In this document: positions 23,145-57,890 of the stretch, piece after piece | How the letters are laid out: each line of letters begins with the position of its first letter | Position numbering within the stretch: the stretch's first letter is position 1 | DNA from: a virus | Lineage: Duplodnaviria; Caudoviricetes | Virus record (IMG/VR): IMGVR_UViG_3300030097_000310 | Coordinates: 2,760 to 66,759 of that record | Strand: one strand, 5' to 3' | DNA length: 64,000 nucleotides | Program-made: the position numbers and the translations under genes | The notes under the pieces: generated by a model | What the model was told of the DNA's origin: nothing | Databases searched by the model: none | The model's input: only the letters and a program-made list of their open reading frames with translations

Positions 23145-24399
23145 CGATTTGCCCACACCACCAGTCGCAGACGCAACAATCGAGCGCACCGTAGCGGAGC
23201 GCCCAAAACATGATAGCAACGTAGCCGCAGCCGAAGCGCTTGGCATCAGCGAAAAGACCGTCCGGCGCCACCTTGCGCTAGCAGCGGAGCGAGGCATGCT
23301 ATCGCTGGATCCGGTCATGCCAGGCTTCGCGATCAAGAGCGTCGCGAGCAAGACGGCAGGAGGGCATTGGGTAAAGCAAACCAAGGCTGCGGGAGAGGAA
23401 TACGAAACCCCGCCGAACATGGTAATCGGCAAGCGTAGCGTCCTGACCGATTCCGCCGGTCGAGTCATGCTGACGTGGAACAAAGAAGATAAGGCGGCAA
23501 GCAACGCGCTCGACACAATCGAGACTCTAAAGCACGCCTTTGATGATGTCGTTCCGGCTAAACCGAAGCCGTCACCTACAGCAGCAGCAGCCGACTTGCT
23601 TACGCTAGTCCCGTGCAACGATTGGCACTTAAACCTTCTGGCGTGGGAGCGTGAGGTTGGAGAAAATTGGGATCTCCGAATAGCGGAGGAGAAAATTGGC
23701 GGAAGCATAGAGGATGCCATAGATCGGTCTCCTAAGTCTGCTGTTGGTGTAGTGCTTGGCGGCGGAGACCTTGTGCATGCCGACAACAACGAAAACAGAA
23801 CGGCGAAGTCAGGAAACGTACTTGACGCTGATGGGCGGCATCAGAAAGCACTTGAGACCGCGTGCCGCCTTAAGGTTCGGACTATCGACGCAGCACTTAG
23901 GCGAAACGACGACGTTATCGTTCGCATACTGCCAGGCAACCATGATGAGTACACTTCCGTCGCTGTTGCCTACTTCCTTCTTGCCTACTACCGCAATGAG
24001 CCGCGCGTTACGGTGGACGTAGATGCGTCGCTGTTCTGGTGGTACGTCTGGGGTAGGGTTATGCTAGGCGCCACGCACGGACACACAGTAAAGGCTGGCG
24101 ATATGGCGCAGATCATGGCGCACCGCAGGGCAGAGGAATGGGGGTCAACCAAGTTCCGATACGTGCACGTTTTCCACGTCCACCACAAATCTAAGTACGT
24201 AACAGAGGGTGGCGGCGTTATTACCGAGACGCATCAGGCGCCAGTACCGCAGGACTTCTGGCATTACGGCGCTGGATTTCTTTCCGGGCGTTCGGTTCAG
24301 ACCATCAGTTACCATAAGGATTACGGTGAAGTTAGCCGTGCCAGGGTGGCAATTCTAGATGCAGCCAACGACAATGCAATGACGGCGATTGCGGCATGA
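23134..24399 (+). CDS. N-terminal HTH + calcineurin-like metallophosphoesterase
   Basis: AAEALGISEKTVRRHL; NDWH, GGDLVH, PGNHD, ATHGH, HVHH. Confidence 0.8.
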   Translation: MEFNDLPTPPVADATIERTVAERPKHDSNVAAAEALGISEKTVRRHLALAAERGMLSLDPVMPGFAIKSVASKTAGGHWVKQTKAAGEEYETPPNMVIGKRSVLTDSAGRVMLTWNKEDKAASNALDTIETLKHAFDDVVPAKPKPSPTAAAADLLTLVPCNDWHLNLLAWEREVGENWDLRIAEEKIGGSIEDAIDRSPKSAVGVVLGGGDLVHADNNENRTAKSGNVLDADGRHQKALETACRLKVRTIDAALRRNDDVIVRILPGNHDEYTSVAVAYFLLAYYRNEPRVTVDVDASLFWWYVWGRVMLGATHGHTVKAGDMAQIMAHRRAEEWGSTKFRYVHVFHVHHKSKYVTEGGGVITETHQAPVPQDFWHYGAGFLSGRSVQTISYHKDYGEVSRARVAILDAANDNAMTAIAA

Positions 24400-25007
24400 G
24401 TAAAGAATGCGCCGTAGGTGGATGCCTTAAAGAAGCAGTATCTCGTGGTATGTGCAGCGCACACTACCATAGACTCATGCGGTACGGCGACCCGGAATTT
24501 GTTCCGCCAAGAAAGCCACCTTCAATTTGCGCGGTAGATGGATGTACGTCGCAGGTAGGTAGGAGCGGAGGACGCGGTTTCTGCAGGAAGCATTACAAAA
24601 GGCTTTTAGATCATGGTGATCCACTAGGTGGAGGAACTGGAAAAGGCGATGTCATTGCGTTCCTTGATGCGGCTATAAACCGAACTGAGGATGAGTGCCT
24701 TATATTCCCGTTCGCAAGGGATTCTTACGGGTACGCAAGAGTAAATATAGGAGGCAACAACACTCCTGCGCATTCTTATGTGTGCGAAAAGGTAAAAGGT
24801 CAAAAGCCTTCGCCGCTTCATGAGGTTCTGCATTCATGCGGCAACGGGGCCAATGGTTGCGTTAGCGGAAACCACCTTTCGTGGGGAACTAGAAAGGAAA
24901 ACGTGGCTGACGCGATCGAACACGGAACTGCGAAGTTTTGGGGAAGGCCGTGTACCGGCGCAGCTAACGACAACGTACCGGCAAGCGAGAGGAGCGTGGC
25001 GGTATGA
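24396..25007 (+). CDS. HNH endonuclease with two Cys-rich N-terminal repeats
   Basis: CAVGGC..CSAHY and CAVDGC..CRKHY; AHSYV..HSCGN..CV..HLSWGTRKEN. Confidence 0.85.
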   Translation: MSKECAVGGCLKEAVSRGMCSAHYHRLMRYGDPEFVPPRKPPSICAVDGCTSQVGRSGGRGFCRKHYKRLLDHGDPLGGGTGKGDVIAFLDAAINRTEDECLIFPFARDSYGYARVNIGGNNTPAHSYVCEKVKGQKPSPLHEVLHSCGNGANGCVSGNHLSWGTRKENVADAIEHGTAKFWGRPCTGAANDNVPASERSVAV

Positions 25008-25279
25008 TATGGCTGGTCTACGCGCACGCAATTATTGGCCTTGCTGTGACGGTTTCATTTTTCGGCGCAATGGCATCAGAGATGATACGCGCCTGCCGTC
25101 AGGCTTCCAGGGTTTCTGCGGTTGCGGCGCGCTGTAGAAGGTTTCGCGGCAAGTCGACATGGAAGGAATACTGGTTCTCCTTACGGAGGGAGTTTCTATC
25201 CAGTTACTCCGCCCTTCGAATCGGAATCTACGAGATACCGCACAACCCATCAGAGCCCATACGGAGGGTGTATAGATGA
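25004..25279 (+). CDS. Hypothetical membrane protein
   Basis: N-terminal TM; coupled overlap. Confidence 0.55.
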   Translation: MIWLVYAHAIIGLAVTVSFFGAMASEMIRACRQASRVSAVAARCRRFRGKSTWKEYWFSLRREFLSSYSALRIGIYEIPHNPSEPIRRVYR

Positions 25280-27522: not shown

Positions 27523-27523
27523 C

Positions 27524-28174
27524 ATGCTAGCAGAACACATCGAACAGAGCTACGCGCCGCGCACCGAGCCCGGCGACGTTCCTGACGTGCCCGTAACGAC
27601 GTGGACGCCTTGGGGCAACGTCACGCCGCCGGCGAATGACAACCACGCCTCGCCGCACCTTGTGGCGTTTACCGGTCTTGCAGGCAGCGGCAAGACGACT
27701 GCTGCCGATTACCTGGTCTCGCGCGGCTACACTCGCGTCAAGTTCGCCGGCCCGCTGAAGGACATGATGCGCGCCATTGGGTTTGGCGATCGTGAAATCG
27801 AGGGAGACCTTAAGGAGAAGCCGCACGGCTTGCTTTGCGGCAAGACTCCCCGGTACGCCATGCAGACCCTCGGCTGTGAGTGGGGGCGCGATCTAATCGG
27901 GCCGGATTTCTGGACGCGCCTGTGGCGCAACACGGCCAGCGAGATTATCGACTCCGGCGGCCGCGTTGTAACTGACGACTGCCGCTTTCCGAACGAAGCG
28001 TCTGCCGTGCGATCGCTTGGCGGCTACATCTACCGCATTGACGGCCGCGGCGGCATTGGTGGCGCTCATGCGTCGGAGCGCATGGATATAGAGCCGGACG
28101 AGTACATTCAGAACGACGGCGCCATCAGTGAGCTATACGGGCGCATTGACGCGGCAGTTGGGTGGGCCGCCTAG
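27524..28174 (+). CDS. Deoxynucleoside monophosphate kinase
   Basis: GLAGSGKTT, FAGPLK, TPRYAMQTLGCEWGR, DDCRFPNE. Confidence 0.9.
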   Translation: MLAEHIEQSYAPRTEPGDVPDVPVTTWTPWGNVTPPANDNHASPHLVAFTGLAGSGKTTAADYLVSRGYTRVKFAGPLKDMMRAIGFGDREIEGDLKEKPHGLLCGKTPRYAMQTLGCEWGRDLIGPDFWTRLWRNTASEIIDSGGRVVTDDCRFPNEASAVRSLGGYIYRIDGRGGIGGAHASERMDIEPDEYIQNDGAISELYGRIDAAVGWAA

Positions 28175-30065: not shown

Positions 30066-30305
30066 TTAGGCTGCGTTCCAATTGAAATCACCGCCGTCCT
30101 CGGCATTCACTTCAACCGGCTCAAAGAACGATAGCGGGTGAATAAATGCCTCGGTGTTACGGGCGTCATCTGCGCTTCTGAAAAGCGCCCTTTCGGTAGT
30201 TTCGCCGGTGCAGCACGGCCCGATGACGGTCGCAAACCGAAACCAAACGTCTTTCCCTTGTCGCTTGCTTGCCAACATTTCCTTGAGTGCGAATGCCGTC
30301 GTCAT
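30066..30305 (-). CDS. Hypothetical protein
   Basis: GGAG RBS; ends NWNAA. Confidence 0.55.
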   Translation of the reverse strand: MTTAFALKEMLASKRQGKDVWFRFATVIGPCCTGETTERALFRSADDARNTEAFIHPLSFFEPVEVNAEDGGDFNWNAA

Positions 30306-30328: not shown

Positions 30329-30574
30329 TTAGGCGGCAGGCTTCCTGCCATCATTGGAAGCAGCCTTTGCCCTAAGCCGGTCTGCTTCGCGTGGGTCGCG
30401 TACAATCGTCCCCATTGGCGGGTTCATGTTGATCATGACTGTTGAGACAAGGTTCCCGACAACAAACTGATACATGTCGGAGTTTCCCACTCGGATGCCT
30501 TCGCCAGCCCTTGCTCTGTCAGCGAGTTGTTGCGCCATCTTTGGCGGGATTTCCTGCGCGGTTTTTGAACTCAT
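30329..30574 (-). CDS. Hypothetical protein
   Basis: GGGAG RBS; ends ASNDGRKPAA. Confidence 0.6.
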   Translation of the reverse strand: MSSKTAQEIPPKMAQQLADRARAGEGIRVGNSDMYQFVVGNLVSTVMINMNPPMGTIVRDPREADRLRAKAASNDGRKPAA

Positions 30575-30626: not shown

Positions 30627-30932
30627 TTAAGCTGCTTCGTTGATGTGAAATTGTTCGCGATAGGCGCGCCTCAATGAACGCAGACGGGAGCACGCTTCGT
30701 CGGCAGTGATGTGCTCGCTCAAAAGGTACTCGTAGCTCTCCATGATGCTGACGGCGGCTAGCTTGTCTTTCTCGTTCGGAGTGCCCCAAACGAACCGCCA
30801 CCCAAGGCTTCCATTCCCGTCTGGATCACCGCGCGGGATACTCATCTGGAAAGACAATCTGCTGTCATGTTCGTTGAACAAGACCGCTGTAGAATTGCTC
30901 ATCACTAGATTGCGCGTTGTATGGGACATCAT
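30627..30932 (-). CDS. Hypothetical protein
   Basis: AGGAG RBS; first gene after promoter at 31006. Confidence 0.6.
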   Translation of the reverse strand: MMSHTTRNLVMSNSTAVLFNEHDSRLSFQMSIPRGDPDGNGSLGWRFVWGTPNEKDKLAAVSIMESYEYLLSEHITADEACSRLRSLRRAYREQFHINEAA

Positions 30933-31210: not shown

Positions 31211-31651
31211 TTAGCCGTTTTTGGCGATACCTGGCGCATTGCGTTTTACAGGCGTTTTACAGTTTCTGTTCTGGTTGGGTTCCGTAGCACGAATCTCAGC
31301 CAGTAGGGCGCGCGTATTCTCAACGGAAAGAACTGGCGTCGGCGAGCCGTAGACCGAGTACACTTCGCCATCGAATAGTTCGTAGATCGGACAGGCCGCC
31401 GCCTGTGCCGCGTCTATCTCCTTTCCGACTCCCGCGCCAATTGCTCCGCCCGGGAATCGCATAAAAATTAGCGCATCACAGGACGCGGCCAGCCTTTCAA
31501 AGTAGACCATACCTTCTTCGTCATAGCCAGCCTGATGATGCGGCTGGTTTGGATTTTCTACCGTCCATCCTTCTGCCTCGATGGCTGCCACCGCACCACG
31601 CTCTCGCTCGGTTCCGTAGTCCGTAACCGGATGTGCGAAATATATTCTCAC
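31211..31651 (-). CDS. Nucleoside 2-deoxyribosyltransferase / N-glycosidase-like protein
   Basis: RIYFAHP, ENP, CDALIF, GAGVGKEIDAA. Confidence 0.65.
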   Translation of the reverse strand: MRIYFAHPVTDYGTERERGAVAAIEAEGWTVENPNQPHHQAGYDEEGMVYFERLAASCDALIFMRFPGGAIGAGVGKEIDAAQAAACPIYELFDGEVYSVYGSPTPVLSVENTRALLAEIRATEPNQNRNCKTPVKRNAPGIAKNG

Positions 31652-32415
31652 GCTGCCTTCTCCATCGGTTCGTTGTCGTTGTCAGCCAACGCGCACAGGA
31701 AGTCGCAGGCCGGAATGATTGGATTCGTCATCGGCCAATCGTCTGGTATCTCGTCAATGAACATGCGCTCGCCTTTTATGCGCGTCAGTCTGGCGCCAAT
31801 TTCACGTGCGTAGGCTGCAGTTCGCGCGAAATTCTCAGGGAAGTGGTGACGATATAGTGACCAATAGTCCGGGCTAGTCGCCTTGACGCATCCAGTCTGG
31901 AGGCAATTGGCGTTTGGAAATCCCATGGCGTAGGAGCGCGGCAACTCAAGCCCTGACTTTTGCACGATTGCAAGGCTTGCAGCTTTTGTTATACCGGCAT
32001 CGATAAGCGGCGCGCGGACGGTCAACTCAAAATAGTTTTCCTTAAGCCTCTCGAAGCGGTCTACGTCTTCGCGATCAGCCGTGTAGCCAAAAACGTGAAT
32101 GTCTGTCGGGCGCTGAAATTCAATTCTAGGGGCAATCTTCATTGCAGATGTGCATGGCGCACCTGCAATACCAGACATGTAACGGCGCTTTTGCCAAACT
32201 TCCCAAACGTCACTGAATTCTGTGGAGCGAAGCAGCGTGACGGACGTATTAAGCCGCCGCATTGCATCTGCCTCAAAACGATAGTTATCCGGATCCTCGT
32301 TGCCAGTCTCACATCGCGCAACGATTGCTTCCGGGTTGTCGCGCAGTGTCAACTGTGCGGCCACGAAACTCGCGGCGCCCGTTGACCACCATATTAGCGT
32401 ACGTCTGTCGGTCAT
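31648..32415 (-). CDS. PAPS-reductase-like adenine nucleotide alpha-hydrolase
   Basis: WWSTGAAS PP-loop variant, CTSAMK, HVFGYT, PLID, GFPNANC..GCVK. Confidence 0.75.
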   Translation of the reverse strand: MTDRRTLIWWSTGAASFVAAQLTLRDNPEAIVARCETGNEDPDNYRFEADAMRRLNTSVTLLRSTEFSDVWEVWQKRRYMSGIAGAPCTSAMKIAPRIEFQRPTDIHVFGYTADREDVDRFERLKENYFELTVRAPLIDAGITKAASLAIVQKSGLELPRSYAMGFPNANCLQTGCVKATSPDYWSLYRHHFPENFARTAAYAREIGARLTRIKGERMFIDEIPDDWPMTNPIIPACDFLCALADNDNEPMEKAA

Positions 32416-33917: not shown

Positions 33918-35909
33918 CTAAGCGGCGGTTGGTTGCGGCTTTTGTTTGCGGTCGCTATCTGGCGGCCAAGCATCTGGTGGTATTCGAATTTTTGCATTTT
34001 CTCGAACCCACTCCAATGCGCTTGGAACGTGAACCATCCTATTCTTATCGAGTGGCATTCCACGCGCAGCCCATGAATACGCCATACCTTTATTTGCCTT
34101 TAGTCTTTTTTCAAAGCTTCTCTGTGTTTCTGTTAAGTCGTTTACTTTTATTAATGTCCTTGTGTTTGCCTCAACCCAATCAATAGCGTCATCAATGATG
34201 ATGTTCCCATCGCAATCGTTTGGTAAGCCGTTCCTGCACCACAGAGTCACAGATGCGAATGAGACTCCGATCCGTCGAGCAAAATCAGCCTTTATTTCAC
34301 TTCCATTAGCTACTCGTTTCTTTTCTTTTTTCTTTGTCTTCGGTTTAGCGATTTTATTACTTCGCATTGAGTTTACTACGTCAAGAGCCTTTTCTATATG
34401 GATCCACCCGTTTTTCGCACACGGAATTACTCCACTCAAGGCCCAAAGTCTTACCTGTGAATTATATGTTCCAATTCTTCGCGCGAATGCCTTTTGGCTT
34501 TCATATTCTGAAGGATCATCAACAAAAAGTGGGCGCATATTTCTTGGCGGGTTTTCTTTTAACCACTCTTTCGCATCTTCTATTGGGACATATCCATCAC
34601 AAAGAGGCATACCTTTAGAAATCCAACGATTCATGGCGAATCTGGCGCACCCTATACGCCTAGAGAATGCCTCTCTAGTCTCGCAGCCGGACGGAACTGC
34701 GCGGCGCAACTCAGTGAGTTTCCCGTCGCATTCACCAATCTCGCTCCCAGTCGGGAACTCATAACCGCACTCACACACAGGCTCGCGCTCGACGCGAACC
34801 TCCTTGCATTCAGGACAGCGGCGCGGACCGTGCTTGCGACCAGCCAATCTTCGTTGACGTGCGCCGCCGTCCAGCGACCATTCAATCGGCAAGTCAAACC
34901 AATCGTGGTCAAGCCACAAGCCCGCGTGGTCGAATATCAACGCCTCGCACTTGCCTTCCGCCGTGCGGAGCGCGCGTCCAATCATCTGCAAAAACAGCGC
35001 CAGGCTCTTCGTCGGGCGGAGCAGGATAACAACGTCGATTGCTGGAAGGTCGAAGCCTTCCGTGAACACCTCGACGTTGGACAGTACCTTAATGTTGCCT
35101 GACGCCAGTGCATCAACAGACGCGTCTCGTTCATCAGTAGGCGTGGTTCCGTCAACGTGTGCTGCCGGTATGCCTTCGGAATTAAACCGATCGACTAGCG
35201 CCTTGCTGGCGTCAACGCTGGCACAAAACACTAGCGCGCGCTTGCCGTCCGCGTTCTTGCGATACTCGGCAATAGCATCACCAATCAGGACCGGCGTATT
35301 CATTACCTTGTCCAGGTCGCCCTTTTTATAATCGCCCGCCTGCATCTTGGCGCTAGCCAAGTCTGGGTCGCTCGGCGCGAAGTATCGGAAGTCGGAAAGA
35401 TATCCGCCGTCAATAAGTTCGCGCGTGGACGGGCCGACAACCAACTCACCGAACCACTCCGAAAGGCCCTTGCCGTCAAAGCGCTCTGGCGTTGCGGTAA
35501 GCCCAAGGTTCTGCGCGCCGTTAAGTTGTTCACGGATCGCAGACCATGACTTTGCCGCAACGTGGTGGCACTCGTCCCATATCGCTAGCGACGGAAGCGG
35601 CAAGTCATTAATGCGCCTAGTAAGCGTAGCGACGGAAACAATCTGCACAGGCTTATCGTATTCAGGCTTACCGCGCGGCGACACGATTCCAAAATCAATC
35701 CCCGCGGCGGTGAAGGCTTTTGCGGCCTGCCGTTCGATCTCCTGCCTGTGGCATATGAACCACACGGGCTTTTTATGCTGCTTGACAATCTCGGTTGCGG
35801 TTCTCGTCTTGCCAGCGCCAGTTGGCATCTGCATTACTGCACTGCCGTGGATTGTTAGCGCCTGTATGGCACTTTCAATTGCAGCAGTCTGATATGGCCT
35901 CAATTTCAT
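33918..35909 (-). CDS. SF2 (DEAD/H) helicase with zinc ribbon and four C-terminal HTH-like repeats
   Basis: MPTGAGKT, DECHH, GLTATP, EGFD, QMIGR, CPEC..CECG; GGAGG RBS favours ATG 35909. Confidence 0.9.
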   Translation of the reverse strand: MKLRPYQTAAIESAIQALTIHGSAVMQMPTGAGKTRTATEIVKQHKKPVWFICHRQEIERQAAKAFTAAGIDFGIVSPRGKPEYDKPVQIVSVATLTRRINDLPLPSLAIWDECHHVAAKSWSAIREQLNGAQNLGLTATPERFDGKGLSEWFGELVVGPSTRELIDGGYLSDFRYFAPSDPDLASAKMQAGDYKKGDLDKVMNTPVLIGDAIAEYRKNADGKRALVFCASVDASKALVDRFNSEGIPAAHVDGTTPTDERDASVDALASGNIKVLSNVEVFTEGFDLPAIDVVILLRPTKSLALFLQMIGRALRTAEGKCEALIFDHAGLWLDHDWFDLPIEWSLDGGARQRRLAGRKHGPRRCPECKEVRVEREPVCECGYEFPTGSEIGECDGKLTELRRAVPSGCETREAFSRRIGCARFAMNRWISKGMPLCDGYVPIEDAKEWLKENPPRNMRPLFVDDPSEYESQKAFARRIGTYNSQVRLWALSGVIPCAKNGWIHIEKALDVVNSMRSNKIAKPKTKKKEKKRVANGSEIKADFARRIGVSFASVTLWCRNGLPNDCDGNIIIDDAIDWVEANTRTLIKVNDLTETQRSFEKRLKANKGMAYSWAARGMPLDKNRMVHVPSALEWVRENAKIRIPPDAWPPDSDRKQKPQPTAA

Positions 35910-35931
35910 ACGCGCCTCCATGGATTTTCCA

Positions 35932-44355: not shown

Positions 44356-44476
44356 TGCAACCATACGACGCCTTCTTTGACAAACCGATTAGCATACCAG
44401 GCGGACCGTGGAAGCCGTTCATCTTCGCGCTAATCGCAATCGCCGCAATCATCATAGTACGGAGCCTGTTTACGTA

Positions 44477-45274
44477 ATGGCACTTTCAATTTCATCACTG
44501 AAATCCAGCAAATCTGGCAACCCGCCTATAACGCTGATTTACGGCGTCGATGGCATCGGCAAGACAACACTCGCCGGAGAGTGGCCGTCGCCGATCTACC
44601 TACCAACGGAAGGCGAAAGCACGCCAAGCGATTTTGAGTTGCCGACGCCAGGAGATATCGAATCGTTCGATGCACTGCTTGACGTGTTCGGCGAGTTGCT
44701 GACCGAAGAACATGAATTCAAGACCGTGATCATCGACAGCCTGGACGGACTTGAGAATCTTGTATGGGACGCGACATGCGCGCGGTTGGGGGTCCAGTCG
44801 ATCGAGGAGCCTGGTTACGGCCGCGGCTACGTAGAGGCTGACAGCGAGTGGCGCGAGTTTCTTGGTGCGCTCGCCGCGCTCAAGAAGTCTGGCATGCACG
44901 TCGTGATGTTGGCGCACCCGGAAATCATCCGGTTCGATTCGCCAACGACCGACCCTTACAGTCGATACGTTCCGAAGTTGCATAAAAGGGCTAATGCGCT
45001 TGTCAGGGAGCAGGCAGATATCGTTGCATTCATGAACTACCGCGTCAGCCTGAAAGAAAAAGAAGTGGGTCACAACAAGAAGGTCACGCACGCCGAAGGC
45101 GGTAAGGAGCGACAGATACACCTATCGGAAGGGGCTGGATTCATGGCTAAGAACCGCTACTCCCTCCCGGATTCGATCTCATACAAGAGGGGCGAAGGCT
45201 TCAATGCGCTGGCGAAATACTGGTCGCCCGCAGCTAACGACAACGGCAAGGCTGGAAAGAAGGAGGCTGCTTGA
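44477..45274 (+). CDS. AAA_24 / Sak4-like ATP-binding recombination protein
   Basis: YGVDGIGKTT, VIIDSLD, PGYGRGY, LAH, AKNRY. Confidence 0.88.
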   Translation: MALSISSLKSSKSGNPPITLIYGVDGIGKTTLAGEWPSPIYLPTEGESTPSDFELPTPGDIESFDALLDVFGELLTEEHEFKTVIIDSLDGLENLVWDATCARLGVQSIEEPGYGRGYVEADSEWREFLGALAALKKSGMHVVMLAHPEIIRFDSPTTDPYSRYVPKLHKRANALVREQADIVAFMNYRVSLKEKEVGHNKKVTHAEGGKERQIHLSEGAGFMAKNRYSLPDSISYKRGEGFNALAKYWSPAANDNGKAGKKEAA

Positions 45275-45687: not shown

Positions 45688-46266
45688 ATGGCACAACTCG
45701 GCTCGAAATTTAACGCTACCGAACACGACACGGAGCAGCGCGACGACTACCCGGAACTCCCGAACGGCATCTACCGGCTCGAAATGGAAGCGTCGGAAAT
45801 CAAGGAAAACCCGCGCAAGAACGGCAACGGCACCAACACGCTACTGAAGACCACGTTTAACGTGCTCGAGCCGGCTGAATACGAAGGCCGGAAGCTCTTC
45901 AATAATTACAACCTTGAGCACGAAAGCTCGCAGGCGCAGGAAATCGGTCAGAAGCAGTTCGCCGCGCTTTGCCGCGCCGTCGAAATCGCCGAGGTCGACG
46001 ATTCCGAAGAACTGCACTTCCGCGCGTTCACAGCGACCGTAAAACTCGGCAAGCCGTCGAAGGAAAAAGACGCCAACGGAAACCCGGCCTACCCGGCGCG
46101 CGCTGAAATCAAACGCTACTACTTCCCCGACGAAGGTAACGTGCCGGAACCTGCGATCGACGACAACCAGCCGAAAGCGGCGCCCGCCAAAGACAACCGC
46201 CAGGCGGCAAGCAACGACAACAAGCCAGCCGCCGCCAGCGGTCAGAAAAAGCGGCCGTGGGGGTGA
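45688..46266 (+). CDS. DUF669-like single-stranded DNA-binding protein
   Basis: LPNGIY, EYEGRKLF..NL, AQEIG..FAALCRA; ends KRPWG. Confidence 0.8.
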   Translation: MAQLGSKFNATEHDTEQRDDYPELPNGIYRLEMEASEIKENPRKNGNGTNTLLKTTFNVLEPAEYEGRKLFNNYNLEHESSQAQEIGQKQFAALCRAVEIAEVDDSEELHFRAFTATVKLGKPSKEKDANGNPAYPARAEIKRYYFPDEGNVPEPAIDDNQPKAAPAKDNRQAASNDNKPAAASGQKKRPWG

Positions 46267-46526: not shown

Positions 46527-47585
46527 ATGCGCATTGCACGCAACGATTTCGCGCGCCTTTTACAGCAAGTCGTGAAGGCCGTCAATAGCAGAAACACCAT
46601 TCCAGTGCTCGGTACGCTTCGGCTTGAAGCGTCTGGCGGCGCGCTAACCGTAACCGCTACCGACCTTGACTTGGAGATCAGCGGATCGATCGAAGCGGAA
46701 GGCGACTATATCGGTTGCATCGACGCCAGAATGCTCGCCGGCGCAGTAGGCAAGTTCAAGGGCGACGAGGTCACAATCGAGGCTGACGGCGACGATGCAG
46801 TAATCAAGTCAGGCCGCAGCCGCTTCAAGATGCAGACTATTCCGGTAGGCGACTTCCCTACAATGGATGGGGGCAAGTTCGGCGCTACACTGGCGCTGGA
46901 TCTTGCCGCTCTTTTTGCGCCGGTAGCGTTCGCCATGTCGGTCGAAGACGCGCGCTATTACCTGAATGGCATCTATATGCATCCGGTCGACGGCAAGCTT
47001 GTCGCGGTCGCCACGGACGGCCACAGGCTTTCCGCTAATTCTGTCGACGTGCCGCATGAGCAGCCGACCGCTGTTTTCGAGGGCATCATCATTCCGACGA
47101 AGACGGTCAACCTGCTGCCGAAGGGAGAGGTTACTGTCGATATCAGCGACGCCAAAATCCGCATTACGGACGGCAAGACGACAATCCTTAGCAAGCTGAT
47201 CGACTGTGTATTTCCGGATTACCAGCGCGTCATTCCATCCGGCAACGACAAGAATATCGTCTTTGACAACGCTACGATGCGAGATGCCGCGGACCGCGTT
47301 GCGCTGGCGTCCAACGAGCGCGGACGCGCCGTCAAGATGACGATCACGGAAGGCGTATGCGACCTTACGGTGCGCGGTGATGCGGAAGGAACCGACAGCG
47401 TGTCAGTCGATTACAGCGGCGAGGAAGTCAACATAGGCTTCAACAGCCGGTACGTCGTTGACGTGCTTGGCGCGCTTCCGCCAGGCGACGTCAACATGGC
47501 GGTTGCTGACGGCGGATCGCCTGCGTTGCTTACCAGCGACAAGGCGCCGTCGCAGCGCATCGTAATTATGCCTATGCGGGTGTAG
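46527..47585 (+). CDS. dnaN: DNA polymerase III beta sliding clamp (phage-encoded)
   Basis: TIPVLG, ATDLDL, RYYLNG, VATDGHRL, FPDYQRVIP, IGFNSRY, IMPMRV. Confidence 0.95.
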   Translation: MRIARNDFARLLQQVVKAVNSRNTIPVLGTLRLEASGGALTVTATDLDLEISGSIEAEGDYIGCIDARMLAGAVGKFKGDEVTIEADGDDAVIKSGRSRFKMQTIPVGDFPTMDGGKFGATLALDLAALFAPVAFAMSVEDARYYLNGIYMHPVDGKLVAVATDGHRLSANSVDVPHEQPTAVFEGIIIPTKTVNLLPKGEVTVDISDAKIRITDGKTTILSKLIDCVFPDYQRVIPSGNDKNIVFDNATMRDAADRVALASNERGRAVKMTITEGVCDLTVRGDAEGTDSVSVDYSGEEVNIGFNSRYVVDVLGALPPGDVNMAVADGGSPALLTSDKAPSQRIVIMPMRV

Positions 47586-49545: not shown

Positions 49546-49886
49546 AACCCACAGCGTATTACGAGCGGCGTATTGTTGAGCTCGAGACAGAAGTCGAGCG
49601 GTTAACGCAGGTGGCGGAAGCCGATCGCGGCAAGCGCGCACCGCTGGAGTGGGGTTTGACACCAGCGGAAAACGCTATCGTGTGTCGGCTGGCGTTCCGT
49701 GAATTGGCGTCCGTTGAGTCGCTTAGGATGGCGGCCGGATCAAAATCAAACGGCACAGTGCGCGTTCAACTGCACAACGCTAAGCGCAAACTAAAGCCGC
49801 ACGGATACACCATTCGCAACATTTACGGCCACGGCTACACGGTCAGCGACAGACTGAAACTGAAACGGGAGATATGCGGTGCTTAA
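49542..49886 (+). CDS. Winged-helix (OmpR C-terminal-like) protein
   Basis: WGLTPAE, VRVQLHNAKRKL, IRNIYGHGY. Confidence 0.75.
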   Translation: MKPTAYYERRIVELETEVERLTQVAEADRGKRAPLEWGLTPAENAIVCRLAFRELASVESLRMAAGSKSNGTVRVQLHNAKRKLKPHGYTIRNIYGHGYTVSDRLKLKREICGA

Positions 49887-51633
49887 GCTACGCGACTACC
49901 AACAGGCTGCGGTCGACTCGCTGTACGAATACTGGTCCAAGGAGGCTGGATCCCCGCTTATCGTGATACCGACCGGCGGGGGGAAGAGCTTGATTCTTGC
50001 AACGGTCGTCAAAGACCTGGTCGAGAACTACCCGGATATGCGGATCCTTATCGTTACGCACGTCAAGGAGCTGATCGCGCAGAACGCGCAGGAATTGTTT
50101 GGACTGTGGCCGCAGGCTCCGGCCGGTATATTCTCCGCGGGGCTAGGCAGGCGCGACGCAAGGGCGCAGATCATATTCGGCGGCGTGCAGACCATCGCCA
50201 GCAAGACTGCGCTTATAGGCCATATCGACTTGGTTCTGGTCGACGAGGCGCACTTGATGCCACGGAAGTCGGAAACGCAATACGGCAAGCTGATCGCCGG
50301 TCTGCGCAAGACCAACCCTGACCTTAAGTTGGTCGGGCTTACCGCTACGCCATTCCGCATGGGGGAGGGATTACTGCACGAGGGTGAAGGCGCGCTGTTT
50401 GACGCGATAGCCTACGAAAAGCCAATCGGAGAAATGATCGAGGACGGATACCTGTGCAAGCCGATTTCAAAAGGCATGCACACAGGATTCGACCTTACCG
50501 GAGTCGGCAAGGTTGGCGGCGATTACAACCAAGGCAAACTGCAGGCCGCCGTCGACAAGGCGGATGTAACGCGCGCCGTGGTTAGCGAGGTTGTCGGCTA
50601 TGGCGATGGCCGCAAGTCGTGGCTGCTGTTCTGCTCTGGCGTCGAGCATGCCTTTCACGTGCGCGATGAAATCCGCGACCGCGGCTATAGTTGCGAAACG
50701 GTATGCGGCGACACGCCGGCCGACGAGCGGGCGCGCATCCTTGCAGACTTCAAAGCAGGTAAGATACGCGCTGTGACGAATAACGCCGTCATGACGACAG
50801 GCACGAATATTCCGTCAATCGATCTCGTTGCGTTTTTACGCCCGACTCTGTCCGCTTCGCTCTACATCCAAATGGCGGGGCGCGGTCTGCGCATTGCGCC
50901 TGGCAAAGACAACTGCCTGTTTCTGGACTTCGCAGGAGTGGTCCGCAAGCACGGACCGATCGACTGCGTTACGCCACCCAATGCGCGGAGCGGAGAGGGC
51001 GAGGCGCCCGTCAAGATATGTCCGCAGGAGCCGGACGACTTTGGCAGAATAGGCTGCGGATCCTTGGTGCATGCCAGCGCACGTGTGTGTCCTGACTGCG
51101 GCTTTGAATTTCCGATCGACGACGCGCCGAAGATCAAGGACAGTGCGGAGGACGCACCGATATACGGACAAGGCGACGCAACTTGGCGCACCGTAACGTC
51201 GCGCCGCTTCGATTACCACGAAGGCAAGGCGGACAAGCCGCCTAGCGTCAAGGTGACTTATATGTGTGGCATGACAGCCATTCGCGAGTGGTTGTGTCCC
51301 CAACACCAAGGTTTCGCGAAATCCAAGGCGGACCGATATTGGGTAAAGCACGGCGGCGAGCGTCCGTTTCCGGCTACCGTCATGGAATGGCTTGAGCGGC
51401 AACGCGAGCTAACCGGCACTGCGGAGATATCAGTAAAGCCTGACGGCAAATACTGGTCGGTTCAGTCACAGAAGCCAGGCGATATGCAGGAACCTGAGCC
51501 GGAGGAATACAAGCCGGACGGTACCGCCGGCGCTAACGATGGCACAGTAGAATGGTATCCTGGTGAGCATTCGCGCGGCAACATTGGATACGCAACAGCA
51601 GAGGAGTTGATGGATGACGAAATCCCGTTCTGA
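49879..51633 (+). CDS. SF2 helicase (RadD/YejH-like) with zinc ribbon
   Basis: PTGGGKS, DEAH, GLTATP, QMAGRGLR, CPDCG; ends DDEIPF. Confidence 0.93.
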   Translation: MLKLRDYQQAAVDSLYEYWSKEAGSPLIVIPTGGGKSLILATVVKDLVENYPDMRILIVTHVKELIAQNAQELFGLWPQAPAGIFSAGLGRRDARAQIIFGGVQTIASKTALIGHIDLVLVDEAHLMPRKSETQYGKLIAGLRKTNPDLKLVGLTATPFRMGEGLLHEGEGALFDAIAYEKPIGEMIEDGYLCKPISKGMHTGFDLTGVGKVGGDYNQGKLQAAVDKADVTRAVVSEVVGYGDGRKSWLLFCSGVEHAFHVRDEIRDRGYSCETVCGDTPADERARILADFKAGKIRAVTNNAVMTTGTNIPSIDLVAFLRPTLSASLYIQMAGRGLRIAPGKDNCLFLDFAGVVRKHGPIDCVTPPNARSGEGEAPVKICPQEPDDFGRIGCGSLVHASARVCPDCGFEFPIDDAPKIKDSAEDAPIYGQGDATWRTVTSRRFDYHEGKADKPPSVKVTYMCGMTAIREWLCPQHQGFAKSKADRYWVKHGGERPFPATVMEWLERQRELTGTAEISVKPDGKYWSVQSQKPGDMQEPEPEEYKPDGTAGANDGTVEWYPGEHSRGNIGYATAEELMDDEIPF

Positions 51634-51790
51634 GCCAACAGATATCATAGGCGCAAATGCCATCGCCGATTTGCGCGCTGCAGGCTGGATAATAGTGCGC
51701 GACGACGCCATCCGCTTGGCGCAGATCGCGGCGCGTTACGAGGCAGATAATGACAATGTGCCTATTGCTAAAATAGGCGAAAACGCATAA
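51614..51790 (+). CDS. Small hypothetical protein (58 aa)
   Basis: GAGGAG RBS; MTKSRSEP...EADNDNVPIAKIGENA. Confidence 0.55.
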   Translation: MTKSRSEPTDIIGANAIADLRAAGWIIVRDDAIRLAQIAARYEADNDNVPIAKIGENA

Positions 51791-53442: not shown

Positions 53443-53678
53443 TGTGCAGCAAAGAAAACGTTGATGCACACGGGGCGCGAAAAGCCGGCACCACAAATTA
53501 CGGTGACCAGTACATGGAGTGCCCTGAATGCGGGCATACCGCGGAGGCAGAGTGCGTCGACGTTGGTGTCGGCCTCTACATCGACGACCAGTACATGTGC
53601 CGCTGTGGCTGGAACTCAGCAGCAGACGGCAAGCTAAACGTCGCAACATACGACGACTACTTCGTGGAGCAGGTATGA
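53439..53678 (+). CDS. Small zinc-finger protein
   Basis: CPECG..VDVGVG..CRCG. Confidence 0.6.
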   Translation: MMCSKENVDAHGARKAGTTNYGDQYMECPECGHTAEAECVDVGVGLYIDDQYMCRCGWNSAADGKLNVATYDDYFVEQV

Positions 53679-54286
53679 TTGACCGCGAATGCCCGGTTTG
53701 CGGGACCGTATTCCAGGTTGCGGAACACCGACTCAAACATGGTCGCGGCATCAACTGCTCGAAAGAATGTCAGTACATAGCCAATCGAGAGAAGCTTGCG
53801 AAGGAAAAGGTAAAACTTACGTGCATTGGTTGCGGTGCTGAATTTGAACGGCTGAATAGTTGGCTCGATAAAGGCAAGGGGATGGGCAAATTCTGCACAC
53901 GCGAATGCCGCGACGCTAACTGGAAAGGAGACATTACTCCAAACTGGCAAGGCGGCAACGGCGTCTATAAGCGAGGCCCGCATTGGCAGTCGATAAAGCG
54001 AGCAATCCTAAAGCGCGACAATTACGAATGCCAGGAATGCTGTGCGACTGGCGATTTGCACGTTCACCACAAGGTGCCATTCCGCATGTTTGACGACGCA
54101 GATGTTGCTAACCATGAAGACAACCTGATTAGTCTTTGTCCTCCGTGCCATAGAAAAGCAGACGCCGCACATAAGTGGGCCAAGGCTGGCGACGCTATTA
54201 TCAGGATGGGCTCCGGAAGCTACGCATGGGAACTGGCCCGCAAGATGATGGCAAACGACAATTTAGAACAAAGGGCGGCGGCATGA
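53675..54286 (+). CDS. HNH endonuclease with two Cys4 repeats
   Basis: CPVCG..CSKEC, CIGCG..CTREC, RDNYECQEC..VHHK..N..LCPPCH. Confidence 0.88.
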   Translation: MIDRECPVCGTVFQVAEHRLKHGRGINCSKECQYIANREKLAKEKVKLTCIGCGAEFERLNSWLDKGKGMGKFCTRECRDANWKGDITPNWQGGNGVYKRGPHWQSIKRAILKRDNYECQECCATGDLHVHHKVPFRMFDDADVANHEDNLISLCPPCHRKADAAHKWAKAGDAIIRMGSGSYAWELARKMMANDNLEQRAAA

Positions 54287-55821
54287 CCGACAAGATTTTT
54301 CTCGATGGCAAAGTAACGCTAAAGGGAGGTGATTGCCTTGAAGTTCTAAAGTCGATTCCAGACTGCTCGATTGATTCGTGTGTTACGGATCCGCCTTATC
54401 ATCTAACGAGTATCGTCAAGAGGTTTGGCAGCGCGAATGCAGCACCCGCGAAATTCGGCACAGACGGCGCATATGCTCGCGCCTCCAAGGGTTTCATGTC
54501 AAAGACATGGGATGGGGGTGACCTAGCCTTTCGCGTTGAGTTGTGGTCGGAAGTTTGGCGCGTGCTAAAGCCAGGCGGGTGGCTCGCGGCATTCTCGGCA
54601 ACGCGAACCTACCATCGCATGGCGTGTGCGATCGAGGACTCCGGCTTCGAAATCCGCGACGACATTCTAAACATGGTGGCGACCGACAGCGTCGCGTCGA
54701 AGTTCATTGAGTCGCTCAATAATGCGCAGGCCGAGGCGTTCTTTAAGCTGATGGAGGAATCGCAATTTGGCGGAATGGCAGCTTGGACCTATGGATCCGG
54801 ATTTCCCAAATCGCATGATGTGAGTAAGGCGATTGATAAGAAGCTTGGTGCTGAGCGCCACAAGATAAAGACGCCAATGGGACCAACTGGAAACAAATAC
54901 AAGAAAGGTCTTGGTGACGATCGGCCTTGGATGCAGGAGGCAGCAGAGAAGGGTTACCACGAACACGACTCTAAAGATCCAGCAACCGAAGCCGCCCGCG
55001 AATGGCAAGGATGGGGAACGGCGCTGAAACCGAGCTGGGAGCCAATCTGCCTTGCGCGCAAGCCGCTTATAGGAACAGTCGCAGAAAACGTGCTCGAGCA
55101 CGGCACTGGCGCGCTTAATATCGACGGGTGTCGGGTTGGTACGGAAGAGCGCCACAATCCAAGCGCAGGCAACAAAGACCTAGATTGCCGAACAACTGTA
55201 ACGCCTATCAGCAGTCATGGTGAAACCGCAGGCCGCGAAACTACCGGAAGATGGCCAGCCAACATCGTGCACGACGGCAGTGACGAGGTTGTTGGTGCTT
55301 TTCCTGATAGCAAGGCAGGAGTCAACGGCGCAGCGCGCGGTACTGGCGGCATATGGTCTGGCATAAGCAACGCACCATGTGGACCGCAGTATGGCGATTC
55401 CGGCTCCGCAGCACGCTTCTTCTACACGGCAAAGGCTGACAAGCTTGACCGCATCGGGTCGAAGCACCCGACCGTAAAGCCCGTCGATTTGATGCAGTGG
55501 CTTGTGCGACTGGTTACGCCAAAGGGCGGTCTAACGCTGGATCCGTTCGCGGGTAGCGGTAGCACAGGTGAAGCCGCTTGGCGAGAAGGCATGCGGTGCG
55601 TACTGATCGAGCGCGAGGAAGAGTACCAAGCAGACATTGCCGAGCGCATGAAGTTAGCAAACGCTGGACCGGCAACACGCAAGGCGCGCGCGATCAAGCA
55701 GGTGGCGAATGACAATCTTCCGCTGTTTGGTGGAGTCGATATGGGGGGGCAACGGGGTGAAGGACGCAAAATCTACGGACACTTTGCGGACCAAAACGGA
55801 CGGCGGCATAATGGCGGGTAA
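54283..55821 (+). CDS. Amino (N6A/N4C) DNA methyltransferase, beta-class order
   Basis: TDPPY, LKPGG, HPTVKP, DPFAGSGSTG. Confidence 0.93.
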   Translation: MTDKIFLDGKVTLKGGDCLEVLKSIPDCSIDSCVTDPPYHLTSIVKRFGSANAAPAKFGTDGAYARASKGFMSKTWDGGDLAFRVELWSEVWRVLKPGGWLAAFSATRTYHRMACAIEDSGFEIRDDILNMVATDSVASKFIESLNNAQAEAFFKLMEESQFGGMAAWTYGSGFPKSHDVSKAIDKKLGAERHKIKTPMGPTGNKYKKGLGDDRPWMQEAAEKGYHEHDSKDPATEAAREWQGWGTALKPSWEPICLARKPLIGTVAENVLEHGTGALNIDGCRVGTEERHNPSAGNKDLDCRTTVTPISSHGETAGRETTGRWPANIVHDGSDEVVGAFPDSKAGVNGAARGTGGIWSGISNAPCGPQYGDSGSAARFFYTAKADKLDRIGSKHPTVKPVDLMQWLVRLVTPKGGLTLDPFAGSGSTGEAAWREGMRCVLIEREEEYQADIAERMKLANAGPATRKARAIKQVANDNLPLFGGVDMGGQRGEGRKIYGHFADQNGRRHNGG

Positions 55822-55859: not shown

Positions 55860-56534
55860 GTGACAGATAGAATACTTTGGTCTGTCGAAACGATGTTCGG
55901 CCCGTGGCACGTAACGAGAATACAGGCAAAAGCGGCAGGGGCTAGGTACTTCTATACTGGCAATCCATGCAAACACGGACACACGTCTTTGCGAAATTGC
56001 GGTGGACATTGCACGATATGCAAGCAAGACGAGGGGAGGCAAAGGAATTCAGATCCAGTCTTGCGTGCACGTAAGACTAAATTAGAGCGAATATCAAGAA
56101 ATATCCCTGAAAACAGAGCGGCGCTTCGTGAGCGACAAAGATTAGCCATTGCCAGAAAAAGGGCTAGCGATCCTGCTTTCGCAGAGATGGAACGAGAAAG
56201 ATCAAGAGAATACATAAAGGGTCGCAGGGTAAACGATCCTGAATTTAGGCAGGCATGTATAACACGCGCAGCTAATAGGGCCGCTAAAAAGAGAAATGCA
56301 GAAGGCTTTTATACTCCACAGGATATCGAAAGAATCAATGCAAGGCAGAATTACAAATGCGTTGAATGTGGATGGTCCACAAAATACGAACGTCATGTAG
56401 ATCATATCATGCCGTTAGCTCTTGGTGGGTCTAATTGGCCGTCAAACCTCCAAGTGCTTTGTCCGATTTGCAATTTGAAGAAAGGCGCAAAGCACCCAAT
56501 TGATTTCGCATTACAGCGGGGGAGACTCGTATGA
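55860..56534 (+). CDS. HNH endonuclease (AT-richer)
   Basis: YFYTGNPCKHGH..C..C; CVEC..HVDHIMPLALGGSNWPSNLQVLCPICN. Confidence 0.88.
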   Translation: MTDRILWSVETMFGPWHVTRIQAKAAGARYFYTGNPCKHGHTSLRNCGGHCTICKQDEGRQRNSDPVLRARKTKLERISRNIPENRAALRERQRLAIARKRASDPAFAEMERERSREYIKGRRVNDPEFRQACITRAANRAAKKRNAEGFYTPQDIERINARQNYKCVECGWSTKYERHVDHIMPLALGGSNWPSNLQVLCPICNLKKGAKHPIDFALQRGRLV

Positions 56535-56851
56535 GTGAACATGACCCATCTTCTTGTCATGTCTGTGGACGTAGGGCGATCGGCGTAAGCGCGCACGACA
56601 ACCCGCCGCGGTGGTTATGCCGTGAATGCGTCGACATCATCGAGCACATACGCAGCGTCAAGCGTCTTGATGCTTACGAGCTAAAAGCGCGTGCCGGCGG
56701 GATGGAAGCGGCCGGCGCTGTTATCGAGCGGTACGGCACGGACCTAGGCGCTTACGAGGAAAGCCAAGCGCTCGAGTTATGCGGCGCCATTTGGCGCGGC
56801 TGCGCCGATGAACTCCGGAGGATTATTGTCGATGACCAAGCGCCTTTCTGA
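56531..56851 (+). CDS. Hypothetical zinc-binding protein
   Basis: CHVCG..CREC; ends DDQAPF. Confidence 0.65.
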   Translation: MSEHDPSSCHVCGRRAIGVSAHDNPPRWLCRECVDIIEHIRSVKRLDAYELKARAGGMEAAGAVIERYGTDLGAYEESQALELCGAIWRGCADELRRIIVDDQAPF

Positions 56852-57890
56852 TAACGATAATGCGCCGGTTGTTTCTGGCCGCAACAACAAGGCACACGCC
56901 TATTACAACGAAATAGACCCGCAAGCAGCAGCGTGGCTGCGCGAGCTAATCAAACAGGGCCACGTGGCGCCGGGAGATGTAGATGAGCGTTCAATTGTCG
57001 ATGTTCGACCCGCCGACCTTGCCGGGTACACCCAATGCCACTTCTTCGCAGGAATCGGAGTCTGGAGCTACGCCTTGCGCAAAGCAGGGTGGCCGGACGA
57101 CCGCGCCGTCTGGACCGGATCCTGCCCATGCCAGCCTTTCAGCAGCGCAGGCAAAGGAAATGGGTTTGATGATGAGCGGCACCTATGGCCGGCGTGGTTT
57201 TGGCTTATCCAGCAGTGCCGACCTTCAGACATCATTGGAGAGCAGGTTGCGAGCAAGGACGCAAATCCTTGGGTCGACCTTGTACAAGATGACCTGGAAG
57301 GAATGGATTACGCCTTCGGGGCGGTCCCGTTCCCGTCTGCGGGCGTCGGCGCTCCGCACATCCGCGACAGGCTCTACTGGACGGCAAGGTTGGCCGACGA
57401 CACGACAAGCGGACGGCGAGAAGAACGTGAGGACGGAAGAGGGCGCGCTATCGGAGATAGCGCGCAAGGGATCGCCACAGGACTTGATACAAGCGGCGCA
57501 GATTGCAGGCTGGCCCAGTCCGACAAAATCCAATGGGGATGGCGGTCAAAGACTGCCGAAGGGGTCAACGATAACAGGACGGAGACCGAATGGAACGAAG
57601 GCAACAGTATCGCTTCCGGGAGTGGTGCAGTTCATAGACACGGACGGCCCAGCCCGACTAACGGCTTCTGGTCAAATCCTGACTGGCTCTTCTGCCGGGA
57701 TGGAAAGTGGAGGCCAGTTGAATCCGGCACATTCCCGCTGGCTCATGGGGCTTCCGCCCGCGTGGGACGACTGCGCGGTTACGGCAATGCAATCAATGCC
57801 GAAGCGGCAATCGCGTTCATCGAAGCGCGCGAAGAAGCAGTAGCGGACATCACTGCCGCAAACGACAACACCACGAAAAAGGCCGCCTAG
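56832..57890 (+). CDS. C5-cytosine DNA methyltransferase, alpha-type chain lacking motif IX
   Basis: FFAGIG (I), SCPCQPFS (IV), GEQV (VI), HIRDRLY (VIII), GYGNAI (X). Confidence 0.9.
56983..57843 (+). CDS. Nested alternative-frame ORF: beta-type methyltransferase chain with motif IX
   Basis: 286 codons inside the MTase gene; GGGAGA RBS; [14 protein letters not shown]. Confidence 0.75.

Follow-up and report, generated by a model that had tools for sequence, protein, structure and literature searches.

The window analyzed here is a stretch of 64,000 nt from the viral record IMGVR_UViG_3300030097_000310, and all coordinates given below are window positions. Ten proteins encoded in it end in tails resembling the peptide that transfer-messenger RNA (tmRNA), the product of ssrA, adds to truncated proteins during translation; the phage tails, in contrast, are encoded in full-length genes. 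What these tails copy is exactly the invariant part of the host tag, a head of the form (A)ANDN and a terminal Ala-Ala (AA). Because they are read in frame from phage genes to ordinary stop codons, they are mimics of the tag and not products of trans-translation. Judging from sequence, we favor, with about even confidence, the reading that the tails are encoded two-part degrons for the adaptor SspB and the protease ClpXP, which would set the half-lives of early phage enzymes.

C-terminal tails of phage proteins

Eight of the tails had been quoted in the original prediction, which was made from the letters of the window and without database searches. All eight translate exactly as quoted, and two more C-terminal copies that had been missed end at positions 46266 and 62088 (Table 1). 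Profile matches bear out the names that had been given to six carriers, namely a SbcD-like exonuclease, two HNH endonucleases, a PAPS-reductase-like protein, a Sak4-like AAA_24 ATPase and a C5 methyltransferase. All ten tails lie 8–17 residues from the stop, and the profile matches end upstream of them: at residue 407 of 421 in the exonuclease (phrog_704), 241 of 255 in the PAPS-reductase-like protein (phrog_424) and 352 of 360 in the C5 methyltransferase (phrog_363). The head is an exact A-N-D-N in five tails, four of which have a further A in front, while the others read DNDN (three), SNDN and SNDG. Terminal AA is present in six of the ten (IAA, KAA, EAA, AAA, KAA and PAA), and from head to AA the five strict tails leave a gap of 4–7 residues and the tail with the NDG head one of 3.

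The host tag and its readers

The tag of the host tmRNA, as read by ARAGORN, is ANDNRAPMAMAA, and those of three hosts of relatives are ANDNNAKEYALAA, ANDNKAQGYALAA and ANDNYAEARLAA. Twenty tmRNA loci of the host family, one from each of 20 genomes, were found through an Rfam search and their tags read with ARAGORN. These follow the form ANDN-x-A-P-...-AA, with the ANDN head in 18 of 20 and the AA end in all 20; the two variant heads are GNDN and ANNN (GNDNRAPVALAA and ANNNRAPAMALAA, loci L190 and L194). The premise that rhizobial tags begin with ANDN and end with AA was thereby confirmed for the host, for the three hosts of relatives and for 18 of the 20 family tags. The distance from head to AA is 6–7 residues in the native tags, compared with 3–7 in the tails of the window and mostly 5–8 in those of related phages. 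No co-variation of the tails with the variable middle of the tag was seen among four host-phage pairs.

The host also possesses the proteins that would read such a tail. It has a single sspB gene (PF04386, E = 8.5e-41) about 430 bases from ssrA (contig C10, 11703–12944), and a Pfam search for SspB through the whole assembly returned this host gene alone, with none on the phage contig (C18). The product belongs to the SspB-alpha type, being homologous to the solved structures 2QAS and 2QAZ (Caulobacter) and 2NYS (Agrobacterium), and SspB-alpha is said, with reference to Lessner 2007 and Chien 2007, to read the N-terminal part of the Caulobacter tag. It ends in a ClpX-tethering tail, ...VSLDSFRK, of which LDSFRK is conserved across 27 genomes of the host order. 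ClpX is present as well (TIGR00382, 651 bits). With ARAGORN, which two-piece tmRNAs can escape, no tmRNA was found within 1.5 kb of sspB in 26 related genomes, and the linkage of sspB with ssrA may not be general. In E. coli, SspB binds the tag's first seven residues and tethers to ClpX (PMC9963277), and in a screen of random sequences 91% of the top 100 C-terminal ClpXP degrons had a terminal Ala-Ala (PMC10862746). A complex predicted for SspB residues 1–122 (27-row alignment) and the last 38 residues of the Sak4-like protein (58-row alignment) scored 0.16 against a mark of 0.32, which speaks neither for nor against binding.

Enrichment of the motif

The window is part of a repeating 66.8-kb unit, described below, for which 112 genes were called with a crude self-trained caller plus manual additions; only the stop positions matter for the counts that follow. 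NDN occurs 20 times in the unit where composition predicts 1.7, a 12-fold excess, and nine of the 20 fall within the final 20 residues of their proteins, a portion that makes up 10.8% of the proteome (binomial p = 1e-4). The comparison of NDN near C-termini with the host, which had been suggested along with the original prediction, came out in its favor. The host proteome holds 54 NDN in 1.14 million residues, which is about 20-fold less dense, and only three of these are near a C-terminus; no host protein has a tag-like tail, and the ten [A/D/S/P]NDN of that proteome are all internal. When the entire assembly was scanned in six frames, [A/D]NDN lay within 20 residues of a stop on the phage contig alone; 18 other NDN lie near stops on host contigs, none of them of the [A/D]NDN form.

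Terminal AA is likewise in excess, being found on 17 of the 112 phage proteins and on 86 of 3436 host proteins (2.5%) predicted by the same caller (p = 3e-9). Ala-Ala is the commonest C-terminal dipeptide of the host, at roughly twice its expectation from composition. The head and the AA end are associated with each other, since NDN is present in eight of the 17 phage proteins that end in AA and in nine of the remaining 95 (Fisher p = 6e-4). They also share a location: among the 73 non-virion genes 15 end in AA and 18 NDN are found, while the 39 genes of the structural and lysis block include two AA ends and two NDN.

It could be argued that disordered tails rich in Ala, Asn and Asp merely resemble the tag by chance. 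The tails and linkers are indeed Ala-rich, and the high rank of AA among host C-termini would lend this some force. Set against it are the 12-fold excess of NDN, the restriction of [A/D]NDN near stops to the phage contig, and a database comparison given below in which a scrambled pattern returned two matches and the true pattern at least 119. We find an origin by composition hardly credible.

Selection on the peptide

The motif is maintained as a peptide. Its degenerate coding sequence, AAYGAYAAY, has 20 in-frame copies on the sense strand of the unit and four in antisense, with none in the other sense frames or between genes. In Rhizobium phage 16-3, the closest named relative of the phage, it occurs 18 times in frame, with none out of frame or in antisense and two in unannotated DNA. 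Seven codon combinations encode the motif, roughly as codon usage would have it. The terminal AA is written with all four Ala codons, before all three stop codons and with downstream spacings of every kind; genes ending in AA precede overlapping starts, short gaps and operon ends, with downstream gaps of -4 to more than 1000 bases. Frame, codon and spacing data together exclude a DNA repeat, a promoter-like element and an artefact of translational coupling. A DNA repeat was rejected as the cause by the frame and codon counts, as had been supposed from the differing codons when the tails were first noticed, and coupling or a ribosome-binding site behind the AA ends was rejected by the range of gaps and the variety of stop and Ala codons.

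Homologues of the Sak4-like protein allow the parts of one tail to be compared. Of the 120 closest homologues, picked by whole-protein similarity, 96 end in AA and the tails of 58 contain NDN. Ala occupies the final two positions in 104 and 103 of the 120 (entropy below 1 bit), while entropy rises above 3 bits at positions -4 to -10, a hypervariable linker. Tails with NDN are 11–30 residues long and those without it 3–14. Compared in this way, the homologues indicate selection on the peptide, and a nearly fixed AA with an optional head would fit the logic of ssrA and SspB, in which the ClpX signal is necessary and the adaptor site enhances it. In an AlphaFold2 model, residues 275–288 of the Sak4-like protein, which are its tail, have a pLDDT below 50 and are predicted to be disordered.

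The end of the exonuclease gene records an insertion. The HNH gene (24396–25007, taken with 24330–24405) is inserted between the core of the exonuclease and its ancestral tail, and two AANDN-coding copies flank it. The HNH open reading frame now runs through the old exonuclease tail, which over 42 bases shares 86% identity with that of 16-3 p044, and the exonuclease again bears a tail of the form AANDN-x5-AA. Retention of a tail by both exonuclease and HNH protein fits selection.

This arrangement, with an HNH gene exactly between two copies at the end of the exonuclease, is the sole hint of a role at the level of DNA, in which GCN-GCN-AAC-GAC-AAC would be a recombination junction or the target of a homing endonuclease and the peptide a by-product. 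The second HNH gene also ends in the motif, and AACGACAAC is the commonest codon choice, accounting for nine of 20 copies in the window and 14 of 18 in 16-3. Yet the window and 16-3 together have 38 copies in frame against none in other sense frames, four in antisense and two in unannotated DNA, and the DNA flanking different copies is unrelated. Moreover, the linker is free in sequence and length while the amino acids on either side persist, and the AA codons and stops vary. An element acting as DNA is therefore very improbable.

Distribution among phages and databases

Phage 16-3 contains at least 20 copies of the motif, including those in Xis, the exonuclease p044, the helicase p088 (two in tandem) and two methyltransferases, and in its 20–60 kb region 18 of 74 coding sequences end in AA. 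Copies of the motif are more numerous in the relatives than here. Within IMG/VR at least 119 stretches match AANDN-x5-AA-stop, whereas the scrambled pattern AADNN-x5-AA-stop gave two. In the 80 loci listed from this search, 78 of the 83 matches end long open reading frames. The 76 listed tail-bearing frames of at least 60 residues comprise 39 orthologues of the exonuclease, seven homologues of other window proteins and 30 with no homologue in the window; the last group includes methyltransferases, a Mom-like protein, two portal families and a baseplate wedge protein. When the portals of unrelated tail-bearing contigs were searched by tblastn, one resembled actinobacterial phages, which is probably a chance match, and the other had only distant named relatives.

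Among 400 alphaproteobacterial genomes drawn evenly, the tail pattern was confined to the genome containing this phage and to two 0.9-Mb genomes, where the matches look like the reading frames of those genomes' own tmRNA tags; a reversed control had no match. In two unrelated alphaproteobacterial phages, Brucella phage Tb and Rhodobacter phage RcCWillis (50 kb of the latter), NDN occurs three times and once respectively, never in tag-like form. The feature is thus one of particular alphaproteobacterial phage lineages and not of all their phages.

A hard-coded tag of the E. coli type, searched in IMG/VR as AANDENYA, gave four matches, one of them tag-like. With so few matches the strategy is not evident in that exact form for enterobacterial phages. 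The tag-like match (locus L052, IMGVR_UViG_2816332560_000005, 13733–13755, minus strand) is an open reading frame cut by the contig end that finishes in AANDENYALAA and a stop, the complete E. coli tag; it may come from an engineered construct or represent a rare instance in nature.

Heads away from C-termini and neighboring motifs

Besides the tails, heads are found at the N-terminus, in linkers and ahead of domains, and AA ends are found on proteins that have no head (Table 1). Ala-Ala termini without ANDN outnumber the full mimics of the tag. Some of the displaced heads are shared with relatives: 16-3 Xis has AANDN at residue 6, and the ANDN of the sigma-like protein is retained in the sigma-factor-like 16-3 p107 and in relative L002. 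Across seven related genomes, 102 distinct copies give the consensus [A/P]-[A, sometimes D or S]-N-D-N-x-[P in 35%]. The DUF669 SSB-like proteins of relatives carry two heads in tandem in their tails, and tandem heads in relatives precede differing terminal motifs, RPWG in some and DD[EV][IV]PF in others.

Two window proteins, an SF2 helicase and a protein of 106 residues, end in ...ELMDDEIPF and ...IVDDQAPF. The conserved C-terminal tip of bacterial SSB is DDDIPF. Helicase orthologues in 16-3, L003, L004, L007 and L008 end in DDEVPF, ADEIPF or ADDVPF after one or two copies of ANDN, and such ends may be a second mimic of a host motif.

Many methyltransferase tails of relatives (L004 near 15996, L007 near 16065, L084–L086, L105 and L106) have Q-x-x-A-D-L-F or QADLF beside the head, and the window has ANDNLPLFGG (55705–55730). 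Elements of the QADLF type resemble the beta-clamp-binding motif. The phage has a homologue of a DNA polymerase processivity factor or beta clamp (phrog_947, E = 1e-80), whose counterpart in 16-3, p081, is annotated as similar to the Pol III beta subunit.

Proposed function and alternatives

As a two-part degron, a tail would act in the following manner. The disordered tail would extend behind the catalytic domain, and its (A)ANDN head would dock in the groove with which the host's SspB-alpha dimer holds peptides. The segment ...VSLDSFRK at the C-terminus of SspB would then tether the complex to the N-domain of ClpX, the free Ala-Ala carboxy-terminus would enter the ClpX pore, and ClpXP would unfold and degrade the protein. 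In this way the host protease could impose short half-lives on early enzymes that are potentially harmful, such as nucleases, homing endonucleases, methyltransferases, the annealing protein and, probably, also Xis. Instability is likewise a property of lambda O, N, CII and Xis. The benefit to a temperate phage would lie in limiting damage and in clearing lytic functions. The strength of the signal may be tuned protein by protein through the presence of the head, the spacing and the last residues (AA as against AV, VA or NA). Copies consisting of ANDN alone would be adaptor-docking sites on proteins with other degrons, or would serve in competition, and this is the weakest step of the scheme. 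Binding, degradation and biological purpose are what we infer from the mimicry, the excess of the motif, the selection on the peptide, the one disordered tail and the host machinery.

Several observations weigh against the degron. Four of the ten tails lack the AA end and finish in AV, NA, WG and LQ. About half of the [A/P][A/D/S]NDN copies in the seven related genomes are N-terminal, internal or on proteins that do not end in AA. Pro stands at position NDN+2 in 35 of the 102 phage copies, a position at which all tags read have Ala. Some heads are repeated in tandem 8–9 residues apart, as in the SSB-like and helicase tails of relatives, and replication proteins that we judge to be abundant carry the head (the SSB-like protein here, the helicase in relatives), which would be wasteful if the outcome were destruction. 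The full tail also occurs on portal and baseplate proteins in other viral contigs. Finally, the K/R-E that often stands before AA in Sak4-family tails probably represents the Shine-Dalgarno sequence of the gene that follows, the one exception to the independence of the AA ends from downstream genes. The proposal that the phage encodes complete SspB and ClpXP degrons therefore stands in part: the invariant tag parts are copied and the host has SspB-alpha and ClpX, but it does not extend to roughly half of the heads, which are not C-terminal or have no AA.

Since heads are found at non-C-terminal sites and without AA, ANDN is a module of its own that a simple C-terminal degron does not explain. 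One alternative is that [A/P]-A-N-D-N is a docking motif which recruits DNA-handling proteins to a common partner of phage or host origin, or to SspB as a scaffold, with AA a separate matter, in the manner of PIP boxes or clamp-binding motifs; we regard this as unlikely. Nearly all carriers are proteins of DNA metabolism, and the placement of the motif at either terminus or in linkers recalls that of clamp-binding motifs, with tandem copies in SSB-like and helicase tails. The phage group has its own sliding-clamp homologue, Pro is preferred after NDN-x, unlike in the tags, and the same tails bear the host-like motifs QADLF and DD[EV][IV]PF, so that they look like arrays of motifs. However, a partner unrelated to the tag would not predict that the motif is the invariant head of the host tag and that AA follows at the native distance in more than 100 cases. 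Nor does ANDN satisfy the hydrophobic clamp consensus (QL[SD]LF type); it is polar, and a separate QADLF or LPLF element adjoins it in some tails, which makes it unlikely that ANDN itself binds the clamp. The motif is also present in loci, albeit short ones, without any homologue of the proteins of this phage, which points to a host partner. If that partner were SspB with ClpX, or another receptor of the tag head, docking of a dozen replication, recombination and modification proteins through ANDN might serve the remodelling or assembly of nucleoprotein complexes, in the way that ClpX acts on MuA, or might jam tmRNA quality control, and would not be for destruction only, a possibility that we rate as low. 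An SspB-ClpX hub of this kind would, with the same modest probability, combine the tag head with copies of the SSB tip and of the clamp-binding motif.

Another alternative is that the tagged proteins occupy SspB and ClpXP, slowing the clearance of tmRNA-tagged or other ClpXP substrates, or diverting these to other proteases, to the benefit of the phage. Many copies are present per genome, some of them in tandem or on abundant proteins, and many heads lack a good ClpX end and would bind SspB without being consumed. That SspB diverts tagged substrates from ClpAP in E. coli (PMC9963277) also counts for this idea. But a small dedicated inhibitor would be far cheaper than the alteration of a dozen enzymes, and the tails are tied to specific enzyme families and conserved within each, as though each carrier were being controlled. 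No element is more conserved than the Ala-Ala end, which makes the carrier a substrate rather than an inhibitor. A decoy or load on host proteolysis thus appears improbable.

Relation to known systems

The tails share with the native ssrA tag of alphaproteobacteria the (A)ANDN head, the Ala-Ala end, a similar length and spacing, and a position at a disordered C-terminus. They differ in that the middle of the tag is not copied, that Pro appears at NDN+2, and that the head is also used alone, at the N-terminus, in linkers and in tandem. To our knowledge the only look-alike of ANDN is the tag head; beta-clamp-binding motifs, PIP boxes and the SSB tip are likewise short motifs in disordered tails or linkers, but ANDN fits none of their consensuses.

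Some ClpX substrates have ssrA-like C-termini (C-motif 1 of Flynn et al. 2003; for instance the Ala-Ala end of Caulobacter CtrA), in which the last residues of the tag are copied and the adaptor-binding head is not known to be. These share an encoded terminal Ala-Ala, a candidate ClpX signal, with 17 phage proteins, but they are host proteins and do not amount to 15–25% of genes. Lambda O, MuA and the Mu repressor are single proteins handled by ClpX or ClpXP through signals of their own, not copies of ssrA. They too are temperate-phage proteins, of replication, recombination or regulation, whose fate is set by a host unfoldase reading a terminal peptide, while the tails described here are one signal spread over many unrelated proteins and conserved in a lineage. 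We know of no protein of the lambda O, MuA or Mu repressor type with an SspB-binding head. Engineered tags (LAA, LVA, AAV, ASV and the SspB-dependent DAS+4) give graded half-lives through their last residues and through adaptor dependence. Reviews of them are PMC8138137 and PMC9382460. Such tags are likewise coded at the 3' end of genes; they are human designs, whereas the phage tails appear to have evolved naturally and have a predicted function.

No earlier description was found in full-text searches, outside which most subscription journals lie, or in the recent genome paper on the 16-3 group, in agreement with what had been supposed when the tails were first noticed. We know of no earlier natural case of gene-encoded full ssrA tags that include the adaptor-binding half. 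The N-terminal and internal heads, the general excess of AA and the sharing with 16-3 and many viral contigs go beyond the original prediction; also new here are the insertion of an HNH gene into a tail, the scrambled and genome-sample controls, the two negative-control phages, and the ends resembling the SSB tip and the clamp motif.

Should the tails work as they look, a temperate lineage that includes the tractable phage 16-3 would time its early enzymes with the quality-control tag of its host, and would be a natural version of the design that synthetic biologists reinvented with ssrA-derived tags. The specificity of SspB-alpha could then be tested on more than 100 natural variants. Phages would, like eukaryotic viruses, copy host motifs in disordered tails, with three kinds together here, and a hub at SspB and ClpX, if true, would be the bacterial-virus counterpart of host-motif mimicry by eukaryotic viruses. 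The finding also bears on annotation, since domain searches ignore such short tails, and on forecasts of the phage proteins that will prove unstable on expression in alphaproteobacteria.

The phage genome

The window is part of contig C18 (100,575 bases) in a 4.13-Mb alphaproteobacterial assembly. The first 32.9 kb or so of the contig are repeated 66,769 bases downstream, except for a few masked bases, and the last 950 bases or so diverge. C18 is therefore about 1.5 copies of a unit of 66.8 kb (66,769 bases), which is what a circular or circularly permuted phage genome should give when assembled separately, and its layout suggests such a free genome and not an integrated prophage.

The unit is a temperate phage, with an integrase, a CI-like repressor and divergent early operons. 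It has in common with 16-3 the layout of int, xis, repressor and early operons, the clamp homologue, the helicase, the methyltransferases and the primase, and its Sak4-like protein is 68% identical to 16-3 p077. Gene set and gene order, as read from sequence, place the carrier among the 16-3-like temperate phages. Other relatives are found in the genomes of Falsochrobactrum ovis, Consotaella salsifontis and Agrobacterium burrii, and in IMG/VR.

Table 1. Tails, heads, Ala-Ala ends and other features of the phage, in window positions; tails and ends are given up to the stop codon
Feature	Position	Strand	Gene or protein	Remark
Tail AANDNAMTAIAA	24361–24399	plus	SbcD/Mre11-like exonuclease (23134–24399)	full mimic, 5 residues from NDN to AA
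Tail AANDNVPASERSVAV	24960–25007	plus	HNH endonuclease (24396–25007)	ends in AV, not AA
Tail ADNDNEPMEKAA	31648–31686	minus	PAPS-reductase-like protein (31648–32415)	
Tail AANDNGKAGKKEAA	45230–45274	plus	Sak4-like AAA_24 ATPase (44408–45274)	
Tail ANDNLEQRAAA	54251–54286	plus	second HNH endonuclease (53528–54286)	
Tail of 11 residues	57855–57890	plus	C5 cytosine methyltransferase (56808–57890)	
Tail ADNDNVPIAKIGENA	51743–51790	plus	58-residue protein (51614–51790)	ANDN-type head, end NA
Tail ASNDGRKPAA	30329–30361	minus	81-residue protein (30329–30574)	degenerate head NDG, end AA
Tail ASNDNKPAAASGQKKRPWG	46207–46266	plus	DUF669 SSB-like protein (45688–46266)	head, no AA end
Tail ADNDNAAAFADDHKLQ	62038–62088	plus	resolvase-like protein (61573–62088)	head, no AA end
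N-terminal PANDN (MTVSAPANDNEP...)	37421–37435	minus	excisionase-like DNA-binding protein (37187–37450)	
ANDN, residues 37–40	27632–27643	plus	gene 27524–28174	just before dNMP-kinase domain (match from residue 38); end WAA
ANDN, then LPLFGG	55705–55716	plus	N6/N4-type methyltransferase (54283–55821)	37 residues before the end
DNDN, residues 15–18	56850–56861	plus	C5 cytosine methyltransferase	C-terminal mimic on the same protein
ANDN (AAANDNQNWPLA)	62385–62396	plus	sigma-like protein (62217–62948)	end LAA
AA end without ANDN	41230–41463	plus	early rightward gene	VAA
AA end without ANDN	41919–43244	plus	early rightward gene	YAA
AA end without ANDN	43476–43811	plus	early rightward gene	EAA
AA end without full head	30066–30305	minus	leftward gene	NAA
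AA end without full head	30627–30932	minus	leftward gene	EAA
AA end without full head	33918–35921	minus	helicase, leftward gene	TAA
AA end	57891–60071	plus	primase/polymerase-like protein	SAA
SSB-tip-like end	49879–51633	plus	SF2 helicase	
SSB-tip-like end	56531–56851	plus	106-residue protein	
Clamp homologue	46527–47585	plus	phage processivity factor	
Virion and lysis block	about 64–66.8 kb and 0–23 kb of the unit			
Tyrosine integrase	36139–37203	minus		
CI-like repressor	40373–41101	minus		
tRNA-Pro(CGG)	63218–63293	plus		complete

The tRNA-Pro(CGG) gene of the phage is far from the integrase, and its 3' half is without a second copy in the assembly. The integration site of 16-3 is a tRNA-Pro(CGG) gene, and the phage copy may relate to the history of the attachment site or to codon supply.

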